A stretch of 38,782 nt of DNA from Eubacteriales bacterium (GCA_045638125.1 JAZUAS010000085.1:1-38782); one strand, 5' to 3'. Counted from the first letter of the stretch, positions 2,589-35,610 are shown. Program-made: numbers and translations. Notes: generated from the sequence alone by a model not told the origin.

Positions 2589-3950
2589 ATGACTCAAAAA
2601 AAGAAATTTACCTTATCCACAACGCAAATGATTCTGCTCAGCTTTCTTGCGGCAGTCTTGCTTGGCAGCGGACTTTTGTCACTGCCCATAAGCGCGGCTG
2701 ACGGCAAAGCCGTACCTTATATAGACGCACTCTTTACCGCCACCACGGCGACCTGCGTGACGGGACTTGTGACTCTGCCCACCGCAACTACTTGGAGCAC
2801 ATTTGGGCAGATAGTCATACTCGTCTTGATACAGATCGGCGGTCTTGGTGTTATCACCGTAATGTCGGGCTTTATGCTGATGCTCCACAGAAAAATGGGG
2901 ATCGGTGACCGCTTGCTGGTTCAGGACGCATTTAACCTGAACACGATGTCGGGACTTGCAAAATTCATCAAGAGCGTTCTCATAGGCACGTTTATCATCG
3001 AGGGCTTGGGCGCTCTGCTCTATATGACGGTTTTCGTCCCCGAATTTGGCATTAAGGGAATATGGTTCTCGGTTTTCACCTCGATCTCGGCATTCTGTAA
3101 CGCAGGAATTGACATCATCGGAGAAAACAGTCTCTGCAATTATGCTACGAATCCGATGGTCAATATCACCACCTCTTTTCTCGTCATTCTCGGCGGTATC
3201 GGATATATCGTTTGGTGGGACGTTATAAGGGTGATCAAAAGTCGCGCCACGCGCAAAAAAAGACTTTTCAAGCACCTCACGCTCCACAGCAAGATCGCTA
3301 TTATATCCACTCTCTGTCTTCTGATCGGCGGCGCGATGCTGATACTCGTTTGCGAATATAACAACCCTCAAACTATTGGAGAGATGTCTCTGTTTGACAA
3401 AATACAGGTGTCTTTCTTCCAGTCGGTAACCACAAGAACTGCAGGATTTGCCTCGATTCCACAAGAAAATCTGACCGGCACGGGAGCTATCGTGTCGCTT
3501 ATGCTGATGGTGGTAGGCGGCTCGCCCGTAGGAACGGCAGGCGGCATCAAGACCGTTACGGTCGTTGTGCTGATATTCTCGGCAATCTCAACCATAAGAA
3601 ACAAAAAAGAAACCTCGCTCTTTAACCGCACCGTATCGGGTGGGTCTATCCGCAAGGCACTGGCGGTGGTCGTAACGTTCTTTGCCGTTATGCTCACCTC
3701 GTCTGTTTTGCTCTCGATGTTCACGGACGCACCTATCATCGACGTAATATATGAATCTGTAAGTGCAACGGCTACGGTCGGGCTTTCCCGAAATCTGACC
3801 TCAAGCCTTAATACGGTAGGGAAGCTTATCATTATCGCCACGATGTATTTCGGACGAATCGGCCCTATTTCACTGGCGGTAGCACTTGGCGGAAAGAGCA
3901 AAAATCAAAATATAATTTCAGAGCCTGTGGAAGAAATAAGCATAGGTTAA
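2589..3950 (+). CDS. ktrB: Ktr/Trk-type K+ (Na+) uptake membrane subunit, KtrB/NtpJ type
   Basis: 453 aa polytopic protein with four pore-loop motifs (TCVTGL, FCNAGI, TTRTAGF, ATVGLS), plus GTAGGIK and MYFGRIGP. Confidence 0.92.
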   Translation: MTQKKKFTLSTTQMILLSFLAAVLLGSGLLSLPISAADGKAVPYIDALFTATTATCVTGLVTLPTATTWSTFGQIVILVLIQIGGLGVITVMSGFMLMLHRKMGIGDRLLVQDAFNLNTMSGLAKFIKSVLIGTFIIEGLGALLYMTVFVPEFGIKGIWFSVFTSISAFCNAGIDIIGENSLCNYATNPMVNITTSFLVILGGIGYIVWWDVIRVIKSRATRKKRLFKHLTLHSKIAIISTLCLLIGGAMLILVCEYNNPQTIGEMSLFDKIQVSFFQSVTTRTAGFASIPQENLTGTGAIVSLMLMVVGGSPVGTAGGIKTVTVVVLIFSAISTIRNKKETSLFNRTVSGGSIRKALAVVVTFFAVMLTSSVLLSMFTDAPIIDVIYESVSATATVGLSRNLTSSLNTVGKLIIIATMYFGRIGPISLAVALGGKSKNQNIISEPVEEISIG

Positions 3951-3963
3951 AGGAGATTTGATT

Positions 3964-4614
3964 ATGAAGAAAAATAAAGCATACGCGGTCTTTGGACTCG
4001 GAAGATACGGCATGGCCGTTGCTCGCGAACTAGTAGATAACGGCGCAGAGGTAATTGCGATCGACGACAATCAAGAAATAGTAAACGATGCCGCAACATA
4101 TCTCCCTATATGCAAATGCGCCGACGTTACCGACGCAGAGGTGCTTATGCGCCTTGGAATATCAGAGCTGGATACCGTCATAATCTGTATGGCAGGTAGT
4201 CTCGAAGCCAGCGTAATGGCGGTAACACTTTGCAAGGAGCTTGGTGTTAAAAACGTTATCGCAAAGTGCGGCAGCGAAATGCACCAAAAAATACTTTTGA
4301 GAGTAGGAGCAGATCAAGTAGTGTTCCCCGAGAACGAATCGGGAATAAGACTTGCCAAAAATCTTCTTTCCTCGGGATTTATTGATATGATCTCGCTTTC
4401 CAAGGACGTGTCCTTGATTGAGACAGAAGTAAAGGACGAGTGGGTAGGCAAAAACCTCATCGATCTGAATCTTCGCAAAAAATACGGATTTAATATCGTC
4501 GCCATCAAAAAGGGCGAGGACGTAAACGTAAGCATTAATCCCGAGACACCTCTTGAGGGCGAAACGACGCTGATAGTTATAGCAAACACCGCAAAGCTCG
4601 GGAATTTGAAATAA
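3964..4614 (+). CDS. ktrA: Ktr K+ uptake regulatory RCK subunit (KtrA/KtrC type)
   Basis: VFGLGRYG Rossmann motif, GADQVVFPE, C-terminal RCK_C domain. ATG at 3964 follows RBS AGGAGA; the ORF track starts at TTG 3958. Confidence 0.9.
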   Translation: MKKNKAYAVFGLGRYGMAVARELVDNGAEVIAIDDNQEIVNDAATYLPICKCADVTDAEVLMRLGISELDTVIICMAGSLEASVMAVTLCKELGVKNVIAKCGSEMHQKILLRVGADQVVFPENESGIRLAKNLLSSGFIDMISLSKDVSLIETEVKDEWVGKNLIDLNLRKKYGFNIVAIKKGEDVNVSINPETPLEGETTLIVIANTAKLGNLK

Positions 4615-19029: not shown

Positions 19030-20184
19030 TCAATCAAAATTTATTGGTTCAGATCTAATAGGTTTGTTAGGATTGCTCCAATCCCAAGTGTGTTTGTGAG
19101 GAAATTTGTGTGTATTATCACTATTAGGATGCCGGTAATCTATATCATATTCGGCCTTCCCATCCGGACCATAATGTCTAGTTTGTTTTTTGCCGTTTTC
19201 ATCGTGTAAATCTTGATCGGAATTTGGTTCTCCATCCGTAGGTAACTTATGGCCCTCTTTTGATTTGTCCTTGTTTGAATCAATATTATTTGTTTCGTCA
19301 AAAGTCAAAGTAGGGAGATCAGGAATAGACATAGTGGATGCTGTTTCTATAGCAAGTATCAGCAATATCCCACCATAAATTATATCACCTATTGGCAGAA
19401 CGGTATCGGCACAACAAAGCCACCACATAGTGCCAGCCCACCAACCAATAGTTTCTGCGTTTTCGCCAAAAGAGTCCGTGTATATAATAGGATTATTATT
19501 ACAATAAATATATAAATTTTGGGAAATCAGTCCTTGATTGGTAGAAACATATCTATCGGCATTAATGAATCTACCAGTATTAGGGTCATAATATCTACTG
19601 TTAAGATAATAGAATCCAAGGTCGTCGTCGTAATAATATCCTCGATAACGGAAAGGATTATACTGCGCCGCAGTGGAACCTCCACCGTTGTAATAAGTGG
19701 TAGTGCAATTACCCCAAGCATCATATGTGTAGCCGACAAGCTTAGTGCCACTTGCATTGTAGATGGCAATTATATCACCTTGGAGATTCTTTTCAAAGTA
19801 GAAAATATCGTAGGTATCTTCGGCATAGCTATTTGTGCGATATAGCATTCCCATAGGAGCGCCGACCTCGTCATAGAGGTAAATTATTAATTTATTACTC
19901 CACTGTTCGCTAACTATGCGAGTGCCTTCTAGTGTGTAATTGTGCTTAACGCCGCCGACGGTCTTACTTGTCCTTATACCTTCATCATTGTAAGTGAACG
20001 AATAACTAACGCCGCCCTTCGTTGCGGTAGCGAGTCTTCTGCCATCTTTCCAAGTGAATGTATATGCCGTGCCGTTGTTGTAAGAGAGGGGGGAATTAGG
20101 CTTGTCCGCCCCCACGGCTTGTGCCGTGGGGACACTGAAACACAAATTAAAATTGTGAAATATCGCAAAACATTTTAAATACAT
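19030..20184 (-). pseudogene. Headless Rhs repeat-associated core + C-terminal His-rich putative nuclease toxin (cassette 3)
   Basis: YTYDAWG, NPFRYRGYYYD, YYLNSRYYDP..GRFINAD and cleavage-type motif NPIIYTDSFG; CT contains RHYGPDGKAEYDIDYRH...PHKHTW. Rhs homology starts near 20095; the first ~30 codons are junction sequence. Confidence 0.85.
20104..20135. repeat. Cassette-junction hairpin A (REP-like)
   Basis: GTCCGC-CCCCACGGC-TTGT-GCCGTGGGG-ACAC; related to 23312-23347. Confidence 0.7.
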
Positions 20185-20191
20185 TTAGGAA

Positions 20192-20518
20192 CTATAAGGA
20201 TAAAATTAATTCTTCAAAATCACAATATGGCATTGTTTCTTTGAATTTATATCTAGGATCATCCGTTTGTAATCCCAATACGGTGATGTAATTTTTACAC
20301 CTAACGCATAATAGATAATAATCTCCATCCATAAAAAACAAAGTAAACGTTGCAAAAACATCCTTTTGGTTTTTTAAAACTTCATATTTCCAACCGGATA
20401 ATATATCTGAGATAAAATCATCCCAATCTTCGCTTGGGAATTTGCATTCACCCGAAATAACGTATATTAATCCATAATTTCGAACGTCTGATTTTGATAG
20501 ATCATAATATACTTTCAT
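20192..20518 (-). CDS. Putative immunity protein for cassette 2 toxin
   Basis: 108 aa; RBS AAGGAG; 19 bp after the toxin stop; FP..DW.DF...IL..W...FFMDG.Y pattern. Confidence 0.75.
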   Translation of the reverse strand: MKVYYDLSKSDVRNYGLIYVISGECKFPSEDWDDFISDILSGWKYEVLKNQKDVFATFTLFFMDGDYYLLCVRCKNYITVLGLQTDDPRYKFKETMPYCDFEELILSL

Positions 20519-20537
20519 AACGAAAATTCTCCTTACA

Positions 20538-21836
20538 TTATTTGGGAAATGCAGTTGTAATTGTTTTTTTTACGGTGTCTACCCAAATCCTAATTCTATT
20601 ATTACTTGAAAAACCTTCTATATAATATCTTATTCCTTCTTGAACTTTAAGTACCGAATCGGGATAATTTGTTCTAGCATTTTCATAGGCTTCACGAACA
20701 ATTTTTTCAATTACAATAGGAGTCATCCATTTTGGAAATTTATCTTTTTTAGGCGATTTGCCTGAGCTTGGATGATGCCTATCCATTATATGATCAATAT
20801 CAACTTTAATATCCTGCTCCTCTGGCAAAGGATTATCTTGTGATTCATCAAATAACACATTCCATATTATGCTAGCTTGCTGCTCGATGCCAACAAAAAT
20901 ATCACTGGTTGAATTAATTATTTCATTTGCCAGTGTATCGTTACTAGTACCTGCAACTCCAACAATCACTGCGACAACAATAATTCCAACAACTACAATT
21001 ATTTCATCAATAGGTCCCGTTACTAAATCATCTATAATAAACAACTGCCCTGTTGGATCGATATATGCAACAGGTGAATTGACACAATATGCGTACATAT
21101 TATAGCCTAATATGTGTTGATATAAGCTATCATCCGCATTAATGAACCTACCCGTATATGGATCGTAGTAACGGCTATTGAGATAGTAAAAATTGAGTTC
21201 AGAATCGAAATAGTAACCTCTGTAACGGAAAGGGTTATACTGTGCCGCAGTGGAGCCGCCACCGTTATAATAAGTGGTAGTGCAATTACCCCAAGCGTCA
21301 TATGTGTAGCCGACAAGCTTAGTGCCACTTGCATTATAAATTGCAATTATATCACCTTGGAGATTCTTTTCAAAGTAGAAAATATCGTAGGTGTCTGCGG
21401 CATAGCTATTCGTGCGGTATAGCATTCCAATGGGTGATCCAGCCTCATCATAGATGTAAATTATTAAGTTGTTGCCCCATTGTTCACTTATTATGCAAGT
21501 GCCTTCAAGGGTATATGTGTGCTTTACTCCGTCAACTGTCTTGCTTGTTCGTATTCCCTCATCGTTGTAGGTGAAGGAGTAATGGTAACCGTCCTGTGTC
21601 TCCGCTGTCGCAAGCCTTCTTCCGTCTGTCCAAGTAAAGATGTAGTTGTTTCCGCTAAAATAGATTATAGGATTTCCTATTGCATCATAATTGATCGTAC
21701 CTGCGCCGGTATTTGTTAATATGTCTCCCCAAGTACTGTCTCCGTATGTATAGTTGGTAGTCGAAGATGCAGTTCCAAGATTTCCGGTGGTATATGCATA
21801 GGTCTTTTTGCTCGTTCTGTTACCGTTGTTGTCGTA
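20538..21836 (-). pseudogene. Headless Rhs core + C-terminal EndoU-like RNase toxin (cassette 2)
   Basis: Rhs homology begins abruptly at YDNNGNR (21836); YDAIGNP, NPFRYRGYY and SPVAYIDPTG; CT has HIMDRHH...KDKFP...EAYEN...ITTAFP. Confidence 0.85.
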
Positions 21837-22079
21837 CCTTCCAACTTTCCTCTCTAAAAGGCAATTTTGTAACCGTACGATTAGAAAATCGTTGAAACCC
21901 TGCTGTAAGGGGAATGGAACTGTTATGTACCAGTAAGCATCGCGTTTGGTCACCCAAACACAGACTTGTCAGGAATATTCCTGAAACCTTTTAGGGCTTT
22001 GGATTATCCCAACAAACTGCCTTTTGTCCCCAAAAGGCGATGCTTGCTGGTATGATCTCTTTATTCTTCAGGATTGACT
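21837..22079 (-). mobile_element. Structured non-coding element, candidate transposase-less IS110-family left end (bridge/seek-RNA-like)
   Basis: 16-bp outer inverted repeat 21928-21943/22037-22052 (15/16) encloses several hairpins; a second stem with an internal loop spans ~21838-21920; ends in RBS-like GGAAGG fused directly to Rhs codons. Confidence 0.45.
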
Positions 22080-22469
22080 TTACTGTTTATGCAGAAGCAA
22101 ACACAAGTTACTTTCCCAAACCTCATCCCTACTCTTTTTTGCTTTTTCAATGCAAACATTTATTGCATTACAGATAGAATTATTATCTGTGTATTTTTGC
22201 AACCTATTTAAGATGCATAAAGCCCCCGGCCAATTCATATCTTGCAACCATTCTAACAATTCAACTAAATAAGGCTTAAGATTTTCATCGCTTTTCTCTG
22301 ATATGATTACAGCACAATTTTCCCATACATTTTTATTATGCTTTGGTGTTAACGGTTGTATAAATGGAATAATTGTTTCCGTATTTCTTGCTAAGGATAT
22401 TCCTTTGGATTGAATTTCAGAGGGCATCTGCCAATCGAGCATATCCATAATTTCTGTAATATCTACCAT
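22080..22469 (-). CDS. DUF5071-domain protein, putative immunity protein for cassette 1
   Basis: Start MVDITE at 22469 (RBS GGAGGT); WENCA..I....DE.L.PYL..LLEWLQDMNWPGA motif; 2 bp after the toxin stop. Confidence 0.78.
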   Translation of the reverse strand: MVDITEIMDMLDWQMPSEIQSKGISLARNTETIIPFIQPLTPKHNKNVWENCAVIISEKSDENLKPYLVELLEWLQDMNWPGALCILNRLQKYTDNNSICNAINVCIEKAKKSRDEVWESNLCLLLHKQ

Positions 22470-22471
22470 TT

Positions 22472-23326
22472 TTAATGACCTCCATCCCATTTAATGACAA
22501 CCGATTTAACCGCTTGTGTCCAAATCGAATCGGAACCTGCATTTATCCAGTCTTCCATTGTTGCACCTACTGGTCTTACACTCACATGGGTAGGACCGTC
22601 TTGAACAGCATAAACCACACCTGTCGCATTAAGCGCTTCAATTGTTGTCACTGCCGCACCAGGCATTGGAACAGTAGAGAAAGACAGACCGGAATACTTA
22701 TCCTTTGCTTTCGGTGTTAAATTTCCTGGATTCGTTCCACCATAGCGATATATTACTGTTGATGACGGCGGAGTTGTAGGTATTGCTTCCGATTTTTCTT
22801 CAGCCTTTGGTATTGATATAGAGGGAGCTGGTGCAGTTATAGCGGTATATGTTGCAATTCCTGCGCAAACCAACACACCACCCAGCAACAGAACCCCTGA
22901 TACTACATCCGCCAGACCCGGTGCAGGAGTGTCTACCTGTGAAACTCCTGCTGCAACCGCAAAGTAACCACTGGCTTTCAGAATTGTTTGTGTAAATGCA
23001 TCCCATAATTCTTTCCAAAAATTTCCCGTAGGATCAATTCTGTTAACCGGATTATTTCCACAGTAGACGAACATATTGTTTCCGATTAATCCCTGACCTG
23101 TTGATGTATATCCATCCGCATTAATAAATCTACCCGTATTAGAATCATAATATCTATTATTAAGATAATACAGGCCAAGGTCAGCATCATAGTAGTAACC
23201 GCGGTAACGGAAAGGGTTATACTGTGCCGCGCCTACGTTTGTAACGTGATTTGTGACAACATGAGCTCCCCAAGCATCATAGGTTATTGCTGTTCCGTTG
23301 AAATCAAATCCGTACGCCCCGACGGC
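22472..23326 (-). pseudogene. Headless Rhs core + C-terminal Tse2/ADP-ribosyltransferase-like toxin (cassette 1)
   Basis: The frame is open from 23326 (TYDAWG, NPFRYRGYYYD, YYLNSRYYD, GRFINAD, NNPVNRIDPTG); the ORF track only starts at internal Met 23074. CT has IYRYGG..NLTP..D..GLSF...DGPTHVSVRP. Confidence 0.85.
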
Positions 23327-24542: not shown

Positions 24543-25070
24543 TTACATACCTGCATTCATATAGTACTCATATCCAATTGACCAAAGGCACATGAGTATT
24601 ATCAAAAGCATAAATCCTGCTGAAGCTATGCCATACCATTTACTGGCTCTGTCCAAGTCTTCGTCTTCTTGCGTTATTTCGTTGGGATCGTCCGGATTAT
24701 AGAGCAAATTGAAATCATCTCCGACCCTGTAACTAAAAGAGCTTCTTCCAATGTCGTAGGTGTTTATATACGTCTTCCCGTTAACAACATATTTCACGAC
24801 AGGAAAATATGAGTGATTAATGGTTTTTGTGATAGCTTTTTCTACACGTATTATTTTGCCGCAAGCGTATTCTGTGCATCTTTTTAATTTTTCTTTATTG
24901 GAGAGACGTAAAGACGCAAACCCGAAACCCGCGGAAAATAGTAAGAACAAAAAGCTAAAAACAGGTGTCCACCCTATAACAGTCGTAATGACAAGAGCTA
25001 TAGCGGATACGGCATATACGATAATAAAAACAATGTATTTTGTGCTAATTTTCATTTTGGGTTTTTCCAT
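24543..25070 (-). CDS. DUF3592-like membrane protein
   Basis: Start MEKPK at 25070 (RBS GAGGTG); two TMs, G.I..V...YFPVVKY.VNG..Y...VGD...LYNPDDP, final TM. Confidence 0.75.
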   Translation of the reverse strand: MEKPKMKISTKYIVFIIVYAVSAIALVITTVIGWTPVFSFLFLLFSAGFGFASLRLSNKEKLKRCTEYACGKIIRVEKAITKTINHSYFPVVKYVVNGKTYINTYDIGRSSFSYRVGDDFNLLYNPDDPNEITQEDEDLDRASKWYGIASAGFMLLIILMCLWSIGYEYYMNAGM

Positions 25071-25435
25071 ATTATCACCTCTGTTTCTGACCAAATATCT
25101 CCAAGCCGTTTTTTGCCGCGCCAAAACATAATAAATTCGATAGGGAATCCCCACACTAGTGGCACATTTCTTAAGATTAATCTACCTATACTAGTTACAT
25201 CGCTATTGGACGTGGACACAACACGAAGCCTAAATATTTTTTTGCCGATACTGGCATTTTTGAAAACTATGTCTTTGCCAAGCACTAGTATCACAATTAA
25301 GAAAACAGTGATGTAACTTTTTATGGTTGGCTGAAGCACTGTCATTTGCAATAATTCCAAAACAATCGCACCCACAAAAGCAATAAGAGTCCAATCTATA
25401 AATGCAGCAAAAAATCGTCTTGTTGTTAATTTCAT
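25052..25435 (-). CDS. RDD family membrane protein
   Basis: RRFFAAFID, SIGKKIFRLRVV, RLILRN and RLGDIWSETEVI; RBS GAGGT. Confidence 0.85.
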   Translation of the reverse strand: MKLTTRRFFAAFIDWTLIAFVGAIVLELLQMTVLQPTIKSYITVFLIVILVLGKDIVFKNASIGKKIFRLRVVSTSNSDVTSIGRLILRNVPLVWGFPIEFIMFWRGKKRLGDIWSETEVIIWKNPK

Positions 25436-25664: not shown

Positions 25665-27029
25665 ATGAAAATTGTAGTTATCGGAAACGGCTCGGTAGGA
25701 GACACTTTGGTCGGCGCTATATGCTCCGAGGGTCACAACGTAACCGTTATTGACGAGGATGCCGCCACTGTAAACGCGGTAGTAAATAAATACGACGTAT
25801 TCGGTGTTACGGGCAACGGAGCGTCGATAGACATCCAAAAGGACGCGGGCGTGCCTGATAGCGACATTGTTATCGCAGTCTCACCCGGAGACGAGCTGAA
25901 TCTGCTCTGTTGCATGGTGGCAAAGCAGCTCGGTGCAAAGCACACAATAGCGCGCGTGCGTGATCCTCGATATCTTAAGCAGATGTCATTTATGAGTAAA
26001 AATCTCGGAATCGACATGATAGTCAACCCCGAGCACGAGGCGGCAAGAGAGGCGGCGCGACTTATTCGTTTTCCTGCGGCGATGAAGCTCGAAAAGCTCG
26101 CGAGAGGACAGGTTGAGGTCGTGCAGATACACATCGGCGACGATCACCCCCTTGTCGGTCTGCCCTTGAAGGATTTTAAAAACAAATACAGTACAAACGC
26201 GCTCATCTGCGCCGCAGTCAGAGAAGATCAGGTCTTTATCCCCGGCGGTGATTTCGTGATTAACGCGGGCGATAGCATTTCTCTGGCAGGCTCACGTCAG
26301 GATATAAACGATCTGTTTGTCAAGATAGGACTTTTAGGCAAGCAGATAAAGAAGATCATGCTGATCGGAGGCGGACGCATATCCCGTTATCTTGCGGCCC
26401 AGCTTGGAAACGGCTACAAGCTGAAGATAATCGAAAAGTCCCCCGAAGCCTGCGAGCAGCTTGCGGAGCTTTTCCCCAAGACCACGATAATTCAAGGCGA
26501 CGCTACCGATCCCGATCTTCTCGACGAGGAGGGCATCGACAACACCGACGCTTGCGTCATAATGACCTCAAACGACCAGACCAATCTGATAATCTCTATG
26601 TTCGCAAGCTCCAAGGGCGTTAAAAAGGTCATTTCCAAGATCGCATCTCCCACCTACGTCAAGCTTTCCGAGGATGCAGGCGTGGATTCAAATATCACAC
26701 CCCAGTTCCTTATAATCGCGAAGGTGCTTCGATATTTGCGCGGTATTGCTAACAGGGGTGAGAAGGGAAGCAAGAGCGGACTCAAATCACTTCACAAGAT
26801 CGCGGACAACCGCGTAGAGGCACTTGAGTTTGACGTAGCCGAGGATTTCGAGGCTGTGGGCAAGCCCTTGAAGGAGATCAGGTGGAAGAAAAATCTGCTT
26901 ATTGCGGCGGTCATTCGCGACGGAAACGTTATTTACGCTCACGGTGCTACCACTCTTGAGGTGGGCGACAGCGTCATAATCATGACCACCAACCCCCAGC
27001 TCTGCGATCTGGAGGACACTCTTGCATAA
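25665..27029 (+). CDS. trkA: Trk system potassium uptake protein TrkA
   Basis: 454 aa with tandem RCK domains; VIGNGSVG and LIGGGRIS Rossmann motifs; DELNLLCC and HTIARVRDP. Confidence 0.93.
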   Translation: MKIVVIGNGSVGDTLVGAICSEGHNVTVIDEDAATVNAVVNKYDVFGVTGNGASIDIQKDAGVPDSDIVIAVSPGDELNLLCCMVAKQLGAKHTIARVRDPRYLKQMSFMSKNLGIDMIVNPEHEAAREAARLIRFPAAMKLEKLARGQVEVVQIHIGDDHPLVGLPLKDFKNKYSTNALICAAVREDQVFIPGGDFVINAGDSISLAGSRQDINDLFVKIGLLGKQIKKIMLIGGGRISRYLAAQLGNGYKLKIIEKSPEACEQLAELFPKTTIIQGDATDPDLLDEEGIDNTDACVIMTSNDQTNLIISMFASSKGVKKVISKIASPTYVKLSEDAGVDSNITPQFLIIAKVLRYLRGIANRGEKGSKSGLKSLHKIADNRVEALEFDVAEDFEAVGKPLKEIRWKKNLLIAAVIRDGNVIYAHGATTLEVGDSVIIMTTNPQLCDLEDTLA

Positions 27030-27056
27030 TTGCATAAAAAAGCGGGATAGTTAATT

Positions 27057-28571
27057 ATGAATTACAAAATGTTAAGATATATCGTGGGCAAGCTTTTGCT
27101 TGCAGAGGGTGCGCTTATGGCACTGCCCCTCGTCACGTCACTGATATACGGCGAATTTAAAATGCTTCACGCATTTCTCATTCCTATGGGCGCGCTATTG
27201 TTGCTGGGCTTGCTTTTTTCTCTGAAAAAGCCGGTGGACGATGCGTTGAGCGCAAAAGACGGATTTGTGGTCGTAGGTCTTTCGTGGATAATAATGTCGG
27301 CATTCGGTTGCCTGCCATTTATCATTTCGGGACTTATCTCAAACCCCGTCGACGCATACTTTGAGACCGTGTCCGGTTTCACCACAACGGGTGCCAGCGT
27401 TCTTTCGTCTGCGGACTTTGCCAAGCTCTGGAGCGAGGACTCAGCTCTTGGTCTACGCGGCATTTTCCTTTGGCGTAGCTTTACCAACTGGATAGGCGGC
27501 ATGGGAGTGCTTGTCTTCGTCCTTGCGGTAATGCCCCAGCAGGATATGAAATCCTCGCGGCTCGTGCATATAATGAGAGCCGAGATGCCAGGACCTAAGG
27601 TCGACAAGATAGTTGCTACTGTCAGAAAGACCGCTGTTATAATGTACGGCATCTATATCGCGCTTACCGCGGCTATGACGGTAATGCTCCTTTTCGGCGG
27701 AATGGATCTTTACGAATCTCTCTGCACCTCGTTCTCAACGGCAGGAACGGGCGGATTTGCAATTTGGAGCGACAGTATGGCTACCTTTAGCGGAACCGTA
27801 AAATACCCCGAATACTGTGTATGGGTAATTGCCGTATTTATGATAATATTCAGCATAAATTTCAACCTTTTCTATCTTGTGATCTCGGGAAAGATTGTTA
27901 CGGCTCTTTTGAGTGAGGAGCTTCGTTGGTTTGCATTAACGGTAGCTTGTGCGGTTGCGTTGATAACCGCAAACATCACTCAAGGCGCACTTGCCGTATA
28001 TGGCAATTTGGGAGACGGAATACGCCACGCCTTCTTCCAAGTATCGACGATCATATCTACCACGGGCTTTGCCACCGACGACTTTAATCTCTGGCCCAAC
28101 GCATCCAAGATGGTCTTGCTGGTGCTGATGTTTATCGGTGCTTGTGCAGGAAGCACGGGCGGCGGCATCAAGGTAAGCCGTATAGTTATTGCGTTCAAGA
28201 GCACCTGGTCTGAGATCAGACACATGATACACCCCAGACGCGTCAAAAAAATAATGTTTGAAAAAAAGAGCGTAGACAACGACACGGTGCGCGGAGTTTT
28301 CGCTTACATGGTAGCATACGTTTTGATCTTTTTTGCTTCGTTCCTCGTTATAGCGATATGCGACGGAAGGAGCATTGAAACAACCTTCTCTGCGGTAACT
28401 GCGTGCATAAACAACATCGGACCCGGATTCGGAGAGGTCGGCCCTGCCGGAAATTTTGTGAGTTTCACTTGGGTATCAAAGATAGTTCTGATACTCGACA
28501 TGCTGCTCGGCAGACTTGAAATCTTCCCCATTCTTTTGCTTTTCTACCCCACTGTCTGGAAAGAAAAATAA
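27057..28571 (+). CDS. trkH: Trk system potassium uptake membrane protein TrkH
   Basis: FETVSGFTTTGAS, WIGGMG, TAGTGGF, STTGF, GSTGGGIK, NNIGPG and GRLEIFP motifs. Confidence 0.93.
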   Translation: MNYKMLRYIVGKLLLAEGALMALPLVTSLIYGEFKMLHAFLIPMGALLLLGLLFSLKKPVDDALSAKDGFVVVGLSWIIMSAFGCLPFIISGLISNPVDAYFETVSGFTTTGASVLSSADFAKLWSEDSALGLRGIFLWRSFTNWIGGMGVLVFVLAVMPQQDMKSSRLVHIMRAEMPGPKVDKIVATVRKTAVIMYGIYIALTAAMTVMLLFGGMDLYESLCTSFSTAGTGGFAIWSDSMATFSGTVKYPEYCVWVIAVFMIIFSINFNLFYLVISGKIVTALLSEELRWFALTVACAVALITANITQGALAVYGNLGDGIRHAFFQVSTIISTTGFATDDFNLWPNASKMVLLVLMFIGACAGSTGGGIKVSRIVIAFKSTWSEIRHMIHPRRVKKIMFEKKSVDNDTVRGVFAYMVAYVLIFFASFLVIAICDGRSIETTFSAVTACINNIGPGFGEVGPAGNFVSFTWVSKIVLILDMLLGRLEIFPILLLFYPTVWKEK

Positions 28572-30352: not shown

Positions 30353-33300
30353 ATGAAAAAGAGAGCGTTAAATCTACTTGCTTTTGTGCTTGCCGCAATT
30401 ATGCTTCTCGGCTCTTTTGCCGCATGTAACGATTGGTCCGACGTAATCGAGACCGAGGGAACAAGCTCGTCATCAGAAGAAACGAGCAGTAGCTCCGAGT
30501 CCGCCACGTCCGGTAGCGAAAGCCGTGATGAGAGCGATACCGAGGAAAGCGGCTCCGAGGGGGGCGGAGATAACACTCCCTCTCTTGAGGATATCGACAA
30601 CGGTCTTCTTATCGGAAACGCAAACTCGCTGAAAAACGGCGTAAATGCGTATTTCTCTGACGGAAAGAGAACAGATTTTGTTCTTGAAAACCAGAACATG
30701 ACCCTTGAATACGCTCTTGCCGCATACAAGGAGCAGGAGATAACATCTTTGAAGAATAAAGAGGGTAAATCCTATATCGAAAGCACGGGCGACGTGTTCG
30801 TTAAGATGACTAACGGATACACCTTCTACTCCTCGGACTCCACCAAGGCAGCAGCCACCAACATTTACCGCTTCGGCTACTATATGTACGAGGCAAGATT
30901 TGAGGAGCAGGTATTTGGCAGCGATCTTATCATAAACGATTCCAAGAATATCGATATAAATAGGATCAAAACCAAAAACCACACGAAAACCTCGAAAAAC
31001 GACGACGGCAGTCTTCGTGTTATGATCACAAATACCACCGACCCGTTCATCGAATTCTCAAACTCCACCTTTGCGGCAGAGGACTACAACTTCCTCCAGA
31101 TCACCATGAAGGCAAGCACGACCAAGCTTTCCTCTTGCGGCTTCTACGTTTGGTTAGACGACAGAGCTCACCAGATAGCATACTTCACCATCCTCCCCGA
31201 CGGTGAATATCATACATACAATATCGATCTTAGGCAGCTCGATAATTACAGCGGTGACGTTACCCGTCTTCGTTTTGACTTCGAAAGCAATCTTGCAGTC
31301 AATGACATTTTTGAAATTTCCGAATTTAAGCTTGTCAACGGAGACGACTGCGGCAGACCCTCAAAGCTTGGTCTTAACCGCTCCTTCTTCGTATACTCCA
31401 ACAAGCTGCACCACGTTTTGCAGATAGCTACCGACCAGGTCGCTACCGAGAATATCGCTCTTGCGGGAATGGAAACCAAGATCGCAGAGGATACCGTCGC
31501 AAAGCTTATCGTTAAGGATAAGAACGGTCTGCACGAAACGCTTGAGGGTGTGGATTGGGATAGCGCGGAATACGTCGGATTTGACATCAAGGACGTAGGT
31601 GTATTCGGTTACATTCTTCCCGTCGATAACAGAGGAGATAAGCTTGAAGTAACCCTTGAGGACGGATATTATACCATAATTCAATCCCGAACCCCCGAAA
31701 ACAATACGATCCTTCCCTCCGCATATTACGACAGCAAGCTGGGTCGTTATATTCCCCTCGAGGGACTGGATAAGGAAAACTCCAACGGCAACGACTTCTT
31801 TATGGGTCAGCGCATATACACCGACGATAACCACGACTTTGAAAAATTCCTCCATGAGGCGCACATAGAGCGCAATCCTCTTACAAGCAAAAATTTCTTG
31901 GTCCCCAAGAACGGCGGCTCTTATGAAGCAAAGTTCACCTGTCCCAACTGCGGATTTATTACGGTTGACGCGATGCTGGTATGCGCACAGTGCTATGAGG
32001 AAGTAACCTTCTTAGTTGAAGAAAACATGTACTATATCGGATACGAGCCCCTGCGTGGTATATACCAGTTCTACGTACCCGAGTATAATTTCAGTGAGGC
32101 ATATTTCAAATTCCCCAACAGTCACATCGACCTCACCTTCCGCGTAATGGGTGACAATTATGACCGCGACATCTACGTTATGTCACTGGGACAGGGAATA
32201 GGATGTCTCGAGAGCGCCGTGCTGCTTGATGCAAACAAGATGATGCTCCCCGTACCGATCGAGGTCGGTAAGAACTACAGTGAGGGAGGAGGAGAGCGAA
32301 ATCTTTGGAACGTAGTGGACTACCAATACAGTGAAGCGATCTTCCCCATGGTCATCAAGGCAAAATCGCAGGACACATACTCTCTGCTTAATATCTATCA
32401 AAACTGGGGTCAGCATCCCTTAAAGCAGGTATCCTGGATACAGTTCTACGCACCTTATTATCACCTTTCAACCGGTGTTATAGAGACCAACTGTATAGTT
32501 CCTTATTACACCACAAGAAACTCCCGCGGTCTGGGAACACTTCCCGACCACAGAGCTATGTCTGCGCCCTTCCATGCAGGTGAGCCTCAGCACACCAGCG
32601 GAGGAAGTCACTCCTGGCTTCAGTACACCGACAAAAACGGTGTGTATAGCGCAACCGAGAACACTATCGATTACATCGACTCTTACGGACCCATTTATTC
32701 CGACGTTTACATGGAATATCTTTCCGACGACGGCAATATAAAGGTATCATACGTTCACACCGAGTTCCCGCAGACCGATGAAAACCGCGCATATTACGAA
32801 ATGACTTATGAGGTTCTCGGAGACGTTGGATTTAAGGACTTCAGCGAGGATTTCTGGTTCTACAAGGTCGGCGACAACGACCCCAAGGGAACGTATAAAA
32901 ACGTCGGTTATCTCAACGAAAACAACGAATGCGTTATAGTTGACGCCGCAAAGGGCAATGAATCGTTCGAATACAAGCTCGGTACAGAATGTCCCTATTT
33001 CTCATTCTTCAATATGCCCGATTATGACAAAGAAGCCATACACAACGAGGGATACGTAAACCTCTCGTTCCTGGTTTACAACTATAAGTTCATCATCGGA
33101 GGAAAAGAAGTAACTCCCAACTTCATTATCATCAATGAAGACGACCAGATCCGCATATCGCTCGACCTGACCGAGGTAGAGCTTAAGGCGGGCGACAAAT
33201 TTACCATCAACTGCATTTTGATGCCTTGGGGCTCTCAAGAATCCGTATATGATTCCGACGAGATTGCGGGAGACCAGAACGTTCGTGACGTAAGAGTCAA

Positions 33301-34945
33301 CACCCTTTTGAACCCCATCACCCCCACCGCGGTCGAAAACTGCAAGGTGATGGAAAGCGTTTTTGTTCCCAAGCTCAGAACCACAAACGGCAAGGACGCT
33401 ACGTTCACGCTCAAGGGCGGTCAGAATAACGTTGCGGTTCGTATATACGGATTCAACAAGCTTACCGCTCCCAAGATACAGGAGCTTGTTGACGGAGAAT
33501 GGGTAGATTACCAAGTCAGCTCGGCATACAAGCCCGATGACTTCGGAAATGCTCACTATTATGACGGCTACGGCGTTTATTACGACGAGGACGGCACCTT
33601 CTCCTACGCATTCATAGTTCCCATGGACTATACCGACGCCGACGGCAGAACCTTCCGTATTGCCGCAGACACCGATTTTGAGGGCTGGCCCGAAAAGCTT
33701 CCCGAGATCGAGGTTGAAGAGGTTGAGCTTCCCTTGAATCTCTACTACGGAGCAAGTGATCTTTATGACGCTATGCGACAGTCTTTCGGAAGGAACGTTG
33801 ATAAGATCATTCTGTCTCCCGACAAGACCTACACCTCGGTATTTGCCAACGGCGCTGTCGAAGCATACTTCCTGCCCTTCAGAGGCAACAACGGAACGAT
33901 CGTAACAGGACATTATTTCGTAATAAAATACCGTCTGCCTGACACCAACAACCAGAAATATCCTTACATCGAGCTCTGGACTAACACCGAGAACTCCGAC
34001 ACCAAGGGATCGAACTTTTCAACCGGTAAGGGCTTCATAAATGACGGAAAATGGCACGTTCTTGTCATGGACCTCTCTGCTTGGAACAAAAACAACTTCC
34101 AGCCCAACGGTAGCGGTGAGTATCTGGCGCAATATCTCCGTGTAGACCTCTTTAACGAAAGCTACGGCAAGGATAACGCTATCAATGTTGCGTATATGGG
34201 TATGCACGATGATCTCGATGAAATATTTGCACTCAATTCCGATCTCAACGAAATAATGGTTTTGAGGGGCAACAATGATCTCAAGACCTACGATTCCGAG
34301 GGCAACGAGATCAAAACTCCCGTCAATCCCGGTGAATCGACGGCTCCCATAGAGGGCTTTACCCTGTACTACAACGCTCCCTCGTTAACCACTAAGGCTC
34401 AAAACAGCGGCGGCGGACATAGCGGAAAGACCGTGATAAGCTCCGACAAGAAGTACGTAACGATACACCACGACACCGACCCGACAAGAAAGAGAACCGA
34501 AAGCTATTTCCATCTCTTCAAGGATAATACCACCGTTACGGGTCAGTATCTTGTTATCAAGTACCGTGCAAGCAAGCCGGCAGGTTATTTCCAGGTGTTC
34601 TCCAGTACCACGTCAAGCGGCGCCAGCAACGCGGATTGCTTCCACCTTGGATTGGAAAATAAAATGTTCCAAACAGACGGTGAATGGCATACCGTTGTAG
34701 TCGATATTTCCAAGCTGGTTGCCTCGTTCACACCTAACGACAACGGTGAATATGTTGCTACTTATCTCCGATTCGACCTGTTCAATTTCTCCGCGGCAAC
34801 CACAGATGAATATAGCGTCGACCTTGCCTATATCGGATTGTGCGACAACTACGAGGATGCTATTTCTCACGAGGAAAACTCCTATTTCTATGACGGCTCA
34901 AAAGCTATCAATGTAACAACAGGAGAGGTCATCTACCAGAAATAA
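30353..34945 (+). CDS. Large (1530 aa) surface lipoprotein of unknown function with CBM-like beta-sandwich repeats
   Basis: Lipobox FAAC, Ser/Glu/Thr-rich linker, recurring DG.(W/Y)H...D....LR.D motif, two C-terminal repeats; RBS AAAGGA. Confidence 0.8.
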   Translation: MKKRALNLLAFVLAAIMLLGSFAACNDWSDVIETEGTSSSSEETSSSSESATSGSESRDESDTEESGSEGGGDNTPSLEDIDNGLLIGNANSLKNGVNAYFSDGKRTDFVLENQNMTLEYALAAYKEQEITSLKNKEGKSYIESTGDVFVKMTNGYTFYSSDSTKAAATNIYRFGYYMYEARFEEQVFGSDLIINDSKNIDINRIKTKNHTKTSKNDDGSLRVMITNTTDPFIEFSNSTFAAEDYNFLQITMKASTTKLSSCGFYVWLDDRAHQIAYFTILPDGEYHTYNIDLRQLDNYSGDVTRLRFDFESNLAVNDIFEISEFKLVNGDDCGRPSKLGLNRSFFVYSNKLHHVLQIATDQVATENIALAGMETKIAEDTVAKLIVKDKNGLHETLEGVDWDSAEYVGFDIKDVGVFGYILPVDNRGDKLEVTLEDGYYTIIQSRTPENNTILPSAYYDSKLGRYIPLEGLDKENSNGNDFFMGQRIYTDDNHDFEKFLHEAHIERNPLTSKNFLVPKNGGSYEAKFTCPNCGFITVDAMLVCAQCYEEVTFLVEENMYYIGYEPLRGIYQFYVPEYNFSEAYFKFPNSHIDLTFRVMGDNYDRDIYVMSLGQGIGCLESAVLLDANKMMLPVPIEVGKNYSEGGGERNLWNVVDYQYSEAIFPMVIKAKSQDTYSLLNIYQNWGQHPLKQVSWIQFYAPYYHLSTGVIETNCIVPYYTTRNSRGLGTLPDHRAMSAPFHAGEPQHTSGGSHSWLQYTDKNGVYSATENTIDYIDSYGPIYSDVYMEYLSDDGNIKVSYVHTEFPQTDENRAYYEMTYEVLGDVGFKDFSEDFWFYKVGDNDPKGTYKNVGYLNENNECVIVDAAKGNESFEYKLGTECPYFSFFNMPDYDKEAIHNEGYVNLSFLVYNYKFIIGGKEVTPNFIIINEDDQIRISLDLTEVELKAGDKFTINCILMPWGSQESVYDSDEIAGDQNVRDVRVNTLLNPITPTAVENCKVMESVFVPKLRTTNGKDATFTLKGGQNNVAVRIYGFNKLTAPKIQELVDGEWVDYQVSSAYKPDDFGNAHYYDGYGVYYDEDGTFSYAFIVPMDYTDADGRTFRIAADTDFEGWPEKLPEIEVEEVELPLNLYYGASDLYDAMRQSFGRNVDKIILSPDKTYTSVFANGAVEAYFLPFRGNNGTIVTGHYFVIKYRLPDTNNQKYPYIELWTNTENSDTKGSNFSTGKGFINDGKWHVLVMDLSAWNKNNFQPNGSGEYLAQYLRVDLFNESYGKDNAINVAYMGMHDDLDEIFALNSDLNEIMVLRGNNDLKTYDSEGNEIKTPVNPGESTAPIEGFTLYYNAPSLTTKAQNSGGGHSGKTVISSDKKYVTIHHDTDPTRKRTESYFHLFKDNTTVTGQYLVIKYRASKPAGYFQVFSSTTSSGASNADCFHLGLENKMFQTDGEWHTVVVDISKLVASFTPNDNGEYVATYLRFDLFNFSAATTDEYSVDLAYIGLCDNYEDAISHEENSYFYDGSKAINVTTGEVIYQK

Positions 34946-35064: not shown

Positions 35065-35610
35065 TCAGCTCTCCATCTGTCTGCCGAGGAAGCTTGCTGC
35101 GGTCTGCACCAGCTTCTGCTCAACCGCTTCAGGCTGAGTCTCGCTATCGGAGGGTGCAAGAGCGGCTACGCATCCGACTATGTCGCCCTCGCTGATGATC
35201 GGCATGGCGCAGGTAACGAAATGGCTACCGCCATCACGAAGAGGATTGATCTTATCCTGCCCTGTGCGGTATGCGTACAAGCCTCTCGCCTCGATTATCG
35301 CCTCAAGCTCCTCGGAAAGCGACTTGTCTCCGTATTCCTTCTTGGAAACTCCCGCGCACGCTACAACGCTGTCTCGGTCGCAGATGACCACCGAGAGGTC
35401 ACAGGTCTTGTGCAGAGTTTCGGCATACTGCGCCGCAAATGCGGTCAGCTCGCCAATAGGCGAATATTTCTTAAAAATGACCTCTCCGTCGCGGTCGGTA
35501 AAAATTTCCAGAGGATCGCCCTCGCGGATTCGCATTGTTCTTCTTATTTCCTTGGGAATGACAACTCTTCCGAGGTCGTCAATTCTTCTAACTATTCCGG
35601 TTGCTTTCAT
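35065..35610 (-). CDS. spoVT: Stage V sporulation protein T (AbrB-like N-domain + GAF)
   Basis: MKATGIVRRIDDLGRVVIPKEIRRTMRIREGDPLEIF..., 181 aa, PIISEGDIVG; RBS AAGGAG. Confidence 0.96.
   Translation of the reverse strand: MKATGIVRRIDDLGRVVIPKEIRRTMRIREGDPLEIFTDRDGEVIFKKYSPIGELTAFAAQYAETLHKTCDLSVVICDRDSVVACAGVSKKEYGDKSLSEELEAIIEARGLYAYRTGQDKINPLRDGGSHFVTCAMPIISEGDIVGCVAALAPSDSETQPEAVEQKLVQTAASFLGRQMES

Follow-up and report, generated by a model that had tools for sequence, protein, structure and literature searches.

What is the hairpin-rich, 243-bp spacer that separates a DUF5071 gene from a headless Rhs gene in an Eubacteriales bacterium (GCA_045638125.1), and how did it come to be fused to the Rhs codons? 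The stretch of DNA analyzed here, JAZUAS010000085.1:1-38782 (38.8 kb; referred to as the window), carries in succession a DUF5071 open reading frame (ORF), the spacer (21837-22079), and a headless Rhs cassette, with the genes around the spacer all on the minus strand. A preliminary description had seen in the spacer an orphan left end of an IS110-group element, with a guide RNA of the bridge-RNA type, joined directly to the Rhs gene. In our view, the 243 bp are best explained as DNA-level remains and not as an RNA gene. Judging from sequence comparison, we consider it probable that the element is an orphan, partly decayed inverted pair of Tn1549-family (MOBP7) origin-of-transfer (oriT) modules, accompanied by the remnant of a mobilizable element.

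Architecture and genomic positions of the core

The spacer contains a 125-bp core (21928-22052) made of two inverted ~62-nt modules, termed S, joined tail to tail with a TA at the center. Part by part, S consists of TACCAGCAAGCATCGC, hairpin A, RCAGAYTTGT, hairpin B, and AAACCYTTA. It is also found singly, and many single modules end at CCYTTA, with unrelated DNA beyond. Read along the nicked strand, S is hairpin A followed by GCGATGCTTG'CTGGTA (the apostrophe marks the predicted nick). The two nick regions of the core face outward on opposite strands and thereby produce the 16-bp "outer stem" noted earlier, an inverted repeat of TACCAGTAAGCATCGC (21928-21943) and GCGATGCTTGCTGGTA (22037-22052) that is complementary at 15 of its 16 positions and has three hairpins inside it. 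This stem, GTTTGG-TCAC-CCAAAC, the palindrome, and GCCTTTTG-TCCC-CAAAAGGC all lie where the preliminary description had placed them.

The two arms of the core are in different states. In the arm next to the DUF5071 gene (U_B), nick-region copy 1 (22037-22052, plus strand; consensus GCGATGCTTG'CTGGTA) is made of columns conserved at ≥90% in 81 distinct S copies. Here the nick sequence ATGCTTG'CT comes directly after the inverted repeat of hairpin A (GCCTTTTG-TCCC-CAAAAGGC, 22019-22038), within the ~10 nt expected of a family member. The predicted nick falls on the plus strand between 22046 and 22047, and transfer from it would be predicted to lead into the DUF5071 side. Hairpin B of U_B (TTTGGATTATCCCAA, 21998-22012) is slightly degraded relative to the consensus TTGGGATTATCCCAA. 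The modules meet at the dyad center AACCTTT-TA-GGGC (21985-21997, with the TA at 21992-21993). In the other arm (U_A), hairpin B is the palindrome TCAGGAATATTCCTGA (21969-21984) and hairpin A is GTTTGG-TCAC-CCAAAC (21944-21959); no strand is assigned to the hairpins or the dyad center, and both A hairpins are defined by fold and covariation. Nick-region copy 2, GCGATGCTTA'CTGGTA on the minus strand (21928-21943), faces the Rhs cassette. Immediately 5' of the predicted nick it reads A rather than G (plus-strand T at 21934), and given this substitution, copy 2 is probably impaired.

S is identified as a Tn1549-type oriT by two features, namely, the hairpin followed by ATGCTTG'CT and the position upstream of nikA/mobC-relaxase genes. 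According to the legend of Fig. S7 in PMC12084326, the Tn1549 oriT is an inverted repeat followed by TATGCTTG'CT, upstream of mobC, and the oriT of Faecalibacterium mobilizable elements, also upstream of mobC, is TTGT-hairpin-AACCCTG'CT. Copy 1 contains ATGCTTGCT, the Tn1549 oriT string given in that legend, and the likeness extends to the second hairpin, which lies between CTTGT and AACCC(C/T)T. The same exact string occurs upstream of the annotated mobC in a MOBP plasmid locus of E. faecium (L103), where it is followed by CTTGT-TGGGGAAATCCCCA-AACCCCTG in an S-like order. The palindrome of U_A is collinear with the latter segment. L103 thus resembles S by motifs and order of parts only.

To place S in genomic context, a pattern taken from the window core was used to collect 70 loci in species-representative genomes (L, G, and C numbers denote loci, genomes, and contigs). 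Three pattern-only matches (L012, L020, and L031) and three duplicates (L024, L029, and L060) were dropped, leaving 64 loci for analysis. With few exceptions, the 70 loci come from Clostridia or Oscillospirales of the gut of people, goats, buffalo, deer, and horses. An Rhs ORF lies within 3 kb in 45 of the 64 loci, 5 of which also have a large serine recombinase; 13 loci lie in integrative-conjugative element (ICE) backbones with Toprim/DUF3991, DpnD/PcfM, NikA/MobC, MobA/VirD2 relaxase, and DUF3801 genes; and 6 have neither Rhs nor ICE context. In nine of the 13 ICE loci, S ends no more than ~155 nt upstream of a same-strand NikA/MobC ORF, which is followed by a MobA/VirD2 relaxase gene. In a tenth, the relaxase gene lies ~485 nt downstream of S, and the remaining three leave the contig. 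A Subdoligranulum record (L102) has a full S and the first bases of the leader described below upstream of mobC, and its relaxase is 60% identical to that of an ICE in the host's own genus (G016:C39). The latter ICE encodes a PF03432 relaxase, a PF02534 coupling protein, PrgI, a PF12846 VirB4-like ATPase, and a CHAP hydrolase; PMC12084326 gives PF03432 plus PF02534 plus PF12846 as the Tn1549-family signature in Oscillospiraceae. G016:C39 has S at 1673-1741 and at 25041-25110. This layout is consistent with inverted S copies at the two termini of an integrated element, but such an element was not adopted, as its right flank would be the ICE's own conjugation genes.

A mob gene and a PF03432 relaxase gene thus lie downstream of S in 10 of the 13 ICE loci and in L102. 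Neither lies downstream of the window copy, and the domain hits in the 38.8-kb window include no mob gene or invertase. The window therefore holds an orphan copy of the site and not the oriT of a resident element. It further differs from a Tn1549-family oriT in having two inverted copies joined tail to tail, in its Rhs array setting, and in its one mutated nick. Hairpin A of U_B is identical to that at the oriT position of ICE loci L004/L044 and L051, and hairpin A of U_A is nearly identical (CTTTGGTCACCCAAAC, with C for G as the first stem base) to that of L011, L014, and L053. Therefore, both window hairpin-A types also occur at genuine ICE oriT positions.

The hairpins are maintained while their sequences vary. 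In the 81 distinct S copies, 90.2% of hairpin-A cells are paired, compared with 78.6% in shuffles (none of 500 reached the observed value) and 37 to 49% with slid partners, and four pairs have changes on both sides. The palindrome of hairpin B is kept across GGAAT/ATTCC, GGGAT/ATCCC, GGAGT/ACTCC, and GGGG/CCCC variants.

Conservation is confined to the core. Mean pairwise identity among 26 full cores is 96.2%, a value somewhat inflated by the search pattern lying within the core, and in the adjoining 90 nt it drops to 60.2% where the leader lies and to 52.7% on the opposite flank. Among 60 relatives, genuine matches were found in G049, G040, and G016, and in G049, which belongs to another family, the 97% identity is restricted to the core. 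In all four animal-gut metagenome runs, which were analyzed as assembled contigs, contigs matching the core diverge exactly at 21928 and 22052/22053, so the same unit occupies other contexts in those samples. Summed word depth over the four runs was 55 to 250 in core bins and 0 to 24 in most flank bins; these sums pool many organisms and are not copy numbers. No contig in these runs spans the whole stretch, several bins have no cover, and the best run contains 0.31 of the sampled words, with none reaching half. BLASTN of positions 21900-22079 against a plasmid collection gave no match. The host genome is a metagenome-assembled genome of 1.86 Mb (83% complete) with a single core copy. A miniature inverted-repeat transposable element was rejected on the basis of this single copy and of one strict match per genome in five others; the additional copies that profile and BLAST searches recovered are confined to the same Rhs arrays.

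If S is a Tn1549-type oriT, then the relaxase and MobC/NikA of a co-resident Tn1549-type ICE would be expected to bind hairpin A and to nick at G'C, after which the adjoining DNA would pass into a recipient cell. In this way, the toxin and immunity cassettes that flank the pair on either side could be mobilized in trans. Nicking and mobilization are steps that we infer, as is the origin of the pair. Staphylococcal plasmids are known to carry "oriT mimics." The window copy is probably a decaying remnant, since one arm has the nick substitution, the recombinase has been lost, and the host genome yielded no cognate relaxase.

The usual view is that homologous recombination spreads orphan Rhs cassettes and swaps them in. 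Finding an oriT next to Rhs cassettes at 45 of the 64 species-level loci suggests another, testable route, namely, trans mobilization by the Tn1549-family ICEs that are common in the gut. A bolder and doubtful extension is that the Rhs arrays of gut Oscillospirales hold working Tn1549-type oriT pairs, accompanied in intact copies by a serine recombinase of their own, that passing ICEs export cassettes in both directions, and that recipients install them through the conserved Rhs core sequence or through the recombinase. If true, this would amount to a conjugation-coupled exchange system for polymorphic toxin tips. Among the papers listed in our literature search, none described an oriT pair, often with a recombinase, embedded in the Rhs arrays of dozens of gut species and far better conserved than the DNA around it.

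A variation on the nick-site theme was observed at L005 (G039:C29, ~84,000-84,250), where a tandem run has at least four units, each a short hairpin with a nick-like (G/A)YG(A/T)TGCTTGC after it. A serine-recombinase-like frame adjoins it, 25% identical to the S-linked recombinase, and the run may be a multicopy nick-site array.

The leader and its missing recombinase

The remainder of the spacer on the Rhs side is a truncated 91-nt leader (leader A; 21837-21927, minus strand) that starts with CATAACAGTTCCATTCCCC and can be aligned with 14 intact leaders. The counterpart of CATAACAGTTCCATTCCCC directly adjoins S in L102. Intact leaders have a long terminal hairpin and an outer helix that pairs GCCTTT with the ribosome-binding site (RBS) AAGGAGGC. 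Compensatory changes occur in only 1 of the 25 consensus pairs. Downstream follow a small ORF (MRKVKLI.., 65 to 119 aa), whose RBS is the one paired in the consensus structure, and then a 575-aa Resolvase+Recombinase+Zn_ribbon+DUF4368 protein of the large serine recombinase type. The small ORF was assigned to no Pfam or NCBIfam family; homologues of the one at L059:3181-3378 are present in at least 15 loci. The complete series, from S through the leader and the small ORF to the recombinase, is present in L059, L069, L063, L030, L070, and L024.

The window leader breaks off partway into the long hairpin, inside its left arm. Missing are the right arm, the RBS, the small ORF, and the serine recombinase; the window row violates nearly all consensus pairs of the 14 intact leaders, and the best host-genome match to the recombinase reaches 32.5% identity, with no S in its vicinity. 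As the best explanation, we propose that the leader was severed by deletion or recombination and joined to the middle of an Rhs gene. The joint reads ...GTTGGAAGG|TACGACAACAACGGT, encoding YDNNG, and the downstream cassette opens mid-repeat and contains the Rhs_assc_core domain, in agreement with the earlier proposal of an orphan element fused directly to a headless Rhs gene. Leaders fused to YD..GN Rhs codons also occur in L050 and L065, and in G065:C8 it is a truncated S that is joined to Rhs codons. Decay of this kind is therefore common within the arrays.

Comparison with intact leaders also changes how several details of the window leader are read. GGAAGG, previously taken as an RBS, is the left hairpin arm; the true RBS, GAAGGAGG, lies ~40 nt further on in intact copies. 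The second stem proposed earlier (TTCCATTCCCCT/AGAGGAAAGTTGGAA, with ACGATT-TTCT-AATCGT) does form in the single-sequence fold but is absent from the consensus of the 14 relatives, in which GGAAACAGTTGGAGGG pairs with a downstream complement missing from the window. The suggestion of an insertion-sequence scar that had lost its transposase survives in part: a mobile-element scar without its recombinase fits the data, but the assignment to IS110 is wrong. Nor is the 243-bp spacer strictly free of ORFs, as had been supposed, because a GTG at 21953 opens a 471-aa frame (20538-21953) through the leader; we take this frame to be due to chance.

The intact relatives resemble relaxase-less mobilizable elements in combining an oriT-like site, a large serine recombinase, and cargo in the absence of a relaxase. 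PMC12084326 describes three such elements with a MOBP7-type oriT, which occur in Faecalibacterium and consist of an oriT and an integrase only. In contrast to these, the elements considered here carry Rhs tips and immunity genes as cargo, their boundaries are undefined, and the window copy has lost its recombinase.

Other sequences may follow S. A second leader type (B) was found in L003, L009, L018, L019, L023, L033, L036, L039, L052, L055, and L079, with a further position at L059:5040-5060. Its order is a bidirectional terminator-like hairpin TTTTTCGG..CCGAAAAA, then CCGGAGGG..CCCTCCGG, then GGTACATAACAG, and it runs directly into short Rhs tip cassettes starting with (Q)NPAETGLYY. In G065, GGTACATA is also present after the stop codon of the recombinase gene. 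The recurrence of the motif both at the outer S edge and where tips begin suggests a recombination joint. A tip-swapping element integrating at the Rhs core end, with GGTACATAACAG before short tips, was considered as a candidate; the observations are suggestive, and it was set aside because attL and attR are not definable. In a third leader type, one or more copies of ACAGGGGACGGTTCTGT adjoin S (L046, L054, L056, L057, L062, L068, and L072).

Two loci illustrate further arrangements. In G065:C3 (L085:13185-19709 to L086:1-3443), a full-length Rhs gene (2,174 aa) and a small membrane-protein ORF come first, followed by a single S, leader, small ORF, and serine recombinase, and then by a tip cassette with PT-HINT and Cytotoxic domains and a DUF6980 ORF. 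The recombinase unit thus separates the expressed Rhs gene from a displaced tip. At L038:865-2866, a phage-type holin (Phage_holin_5_2) and an Amidase_2 gene take the place of the recombinase after the double core, leader, and small ORF.

Weighing the competing explanations

Several points weigh against the identification of the core as an oriT pair. An inverted pair exceeds the need of a simple mobilization site. The window arm that faces the Rhs cassette, with its A for G at the predicted nick, is alone among the 81 distinct S copies in having T at alignment column 7. Hairpin-A covariation is dominated by two sequence types and thus reflects few independent events. The nick position comes from a figure legend of a citing paper (PMC12084326, Fig. 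S7). No cognate relaxase was found in the host, whose two PF03432 relaxases share 34 to 35% identity with that of the G016 ICE; in the stretches examined of an assembly that is 83% complete, neither has an S nearby. A core flipped between the same flanks, as described below, is poorly explained by a relaxase. Moreover, S has traits of a recombinase site (the dyad center at TA and an adjoining serine recombinase gene) as well as promoter-like hexamers, and it may have functions other than, or in addition to, those of an oriT.

The recombinase-site traits raise the possibility that the core is an attP-like or res-like site on which the linked large serine recombinase acts, cutting at the central TA. 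Single S modules would then be products of the attL and attR type, and the window copy would be an unused or orphan site. The order of S, leader, small ORF, and 575-aa recombinase in at least six relatives (the window not among them), the dyad symmetry TCCTGAAACCTT-TA-AGGGCTTGGGA around the TA, and the many single S modules that end at CCYT-TA with unrelated DNA beyond are all consistent with such a site. We nevertheless regard it as unlikely, because single S modules occupy the ICE oriT position where the surrounding 3 kb hold no serine recombinase, single-S junctions vary (L072 and L078 retain TTAAG(G) past the TA), and the partner half-site was not found anywhere in the G065 genome. In addition, a 62-nt arm with two covarying hairpins far exceeds what serine integrases are known to need of their sites. 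For the outer part of S, a recombinase site and an oriT are in any case compatible.

A second alternative is an inverton, in which a promoter or terminator segment is flipped between the 16-bp repeats to switch the Rhs cassette or the recombinase. Known examples include fimS, the PSA-type switches of Bacteroides, and the cwpV and flagellar switches of C. difficile, with which the core shares a short segment bounded by inverted repeats and the occurrence of both orientations between the same flanks. Among 28 double cores recognized by a regular expression, the leader adjoins U_A in 12 (including the window), U_B in 10, both sides in 1, and neither in 5. The core is flipped between shared flanks in three species pairs (L030/L067, L046/L055, and L070/L015), indicating that inversion between the 16-bp repeats happened repeatedly. 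The core also contains a promoter-like GGGACA-16-GATAAT with an upstream TG and an overlapping terminator-like hairpin followed by AGTTTGTT, and in L059 a GTGACC-18-TATAGT with TG spans the edge between S and leader.

Other observations make a switch less likely. Promoter-like sites in the window element are no more frequent than in shuffles (1 versus a mean of 1.8), and the promoter and terminator candidates point both ways, so that the direction of transcription was not derived from them. Both orientations were seen only between species: at the L067 locus, four independent metagenome contigs are identical to the reference, giving the same orientation in five of five. No opposite-strand joint at the repeat edges was found in contigs of the four runs, and both results are weak evidence, because contigs and consensus assemblies drop minority forms. 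The only two opposite-strand joints (21961/22020 and 21993/22177) lie elsewhere, in one contig each, and could not be interpreted. Therefore, the inversions appear to be evolutionary events. With no dedicated invertase in the window, and with the repeats already accounted for as nick regions, an inverton seems to us quite improbable. The inversions may have arisen by template switching at the palindrome or through a recombinase. Inversion mediated by a relaxase was rejected, since strand bookkeeping shows that cross-joined nicks yield hairpin-ended strands and no inversion.

Whether the element could act as RNA depends on its fold. The minus-strand RNA of the 243 nt folds at -77.2 kcal/mol (z = -4.96) and the plus-strand RNA at -73.7 kcal/mol (z = -4.21), with 0 of 200 shuffles as good in either case. 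This strength on both strands indicates a DNA palindrome and not a strand-specific structure. The minimum-energy and centroid folds both give a three-way junction with hairpin loops of 4 to 6 nt, whereas IS110 bridge RNAs have large internal loops that hold the target and donor guides, so the two guide-loop stems on one strand envisaged earlier are not there. The motifs CAGTTTGTT and TGACAAGT, once compared with IS110 left ends, are RCAGAYTTGT, the conserved spacer that separates the two oriT hairpins. The inverted repeat by itself is only mildly unusual: the outer arms are the sole 16-nt inverted pair in the window with at most one mismatch and a spacing of 20 to 150 nt, and ten first-order Markov resamples gave 0, 0, 1, 0, 0, 0, 0, 3, 0, and 0 such pairs (mean, 0.4). 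It is the nested hairpins and the conservation in other genomes that argue for a real element.

The genomic context likewise lacks IS110. The 64 loci gave 383 flanking ORFs with a length of 80 aa or more. These were clustered, and 37 cluster representatives and 150 singletons, covering 361 of the 383, were scanned against Pfam without a hit to DEDD_Tnp_IS110 or Transposase_20. PF01548 is absent from the 83%-complete host genome, while the same search was positive in 6 of 14 control genomes. Homologues of the core, which had been expected to precede DEDD_Tnp_IS110 genes, instead lie upstream of nikA/mobC-relaxase genes or of the large serine recombinase. Rfam gave no match in the whole window at gathering thresholds, and a lenient scan of 21600-22300 returned only DUF805b (E = 0.16), which falls within the DUF5071 ORF and was taken as chance.

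A structured RNA, whether an orphan IS110 bridge RNA or a cis-regulatory 5' untranslated region of the Rhs cassette, is therefore very improbable, despite the strong fold and a bridge-RNA-like position of structured noncoding DNA upstream of a recombinase gene in intact relatives, given that the recombinase is a large serine enzyme and not a DEDD/IS110 enzyme, that the palindrome is without guide loops or IS110 context, and that the leader consensus, with its single compensatory pair, cannot form in the window, even if an RNA regulator is plausible in intact leaders, with their conserved hairpin and GCCTTT-RBS helix. The oriT pair remains our preferred reading, and it illustrates that a structured, hairpin-rich intergenic element can be a DNA site that, in genome scans, is easily mistaken for a guide RNA or an invertible promoter.

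The Rhs array and the rest of the window

The spacer lies within a series of three headless Rhs cassettes (19030-23300, minus strand), with small ORFs after each; the window has no full-length Rhs gene. Upstream, the DUF5071 gene (22080-22490, minus strand) encodes a 136-aa protein (Pfam DUF5071, E = 9e-12, 45.8 bits, cutoff of 27), which we infer to be the immunity protein of the preceding cassette. Between its stop codon and the core are 27 nt (22053-22079, minus strand), similar to the spacers (..AAGAGATCA|TACCAGC) in L023 and L065, where the element is preceded by the same DUF5071 gene end as in the window.

Downstream, cassette 2 (20538-21836, minus strand; 432 aa) comprises Rhs repeats (RHS_repeat), the core end, and a C-terminal toxin region to which no known family was assigned. 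TIGR03696 (Rhs_assc_core) matches residues 179-264 with 63 bits (cutoff of 32.5), and the core-end motif is YYLNSRYYDPNTGRFINAD. The 108-aa ORF that follows (20192-20518, minus strand) has no Pfam or NCBIfam family and, from its position, is a putative immunity gene. A 300-nt repeat is shared within the array, with 19555-19854 and 21132-21431 being 86% identical.

Elsewhere in the window, a 1,530-aa ORF at 30353-34945 (plus strand) has no Pfam match above threshold and only a weak one to New_glue (E = 0.0033, below the cutoff). The window also holds two distinct TrkH/TrkA potassium uptake gene pairs (2589-4614 and 25665-28571), and SpoVT at 35065-35610 indicates that the host is a spore-forming Firmicute.

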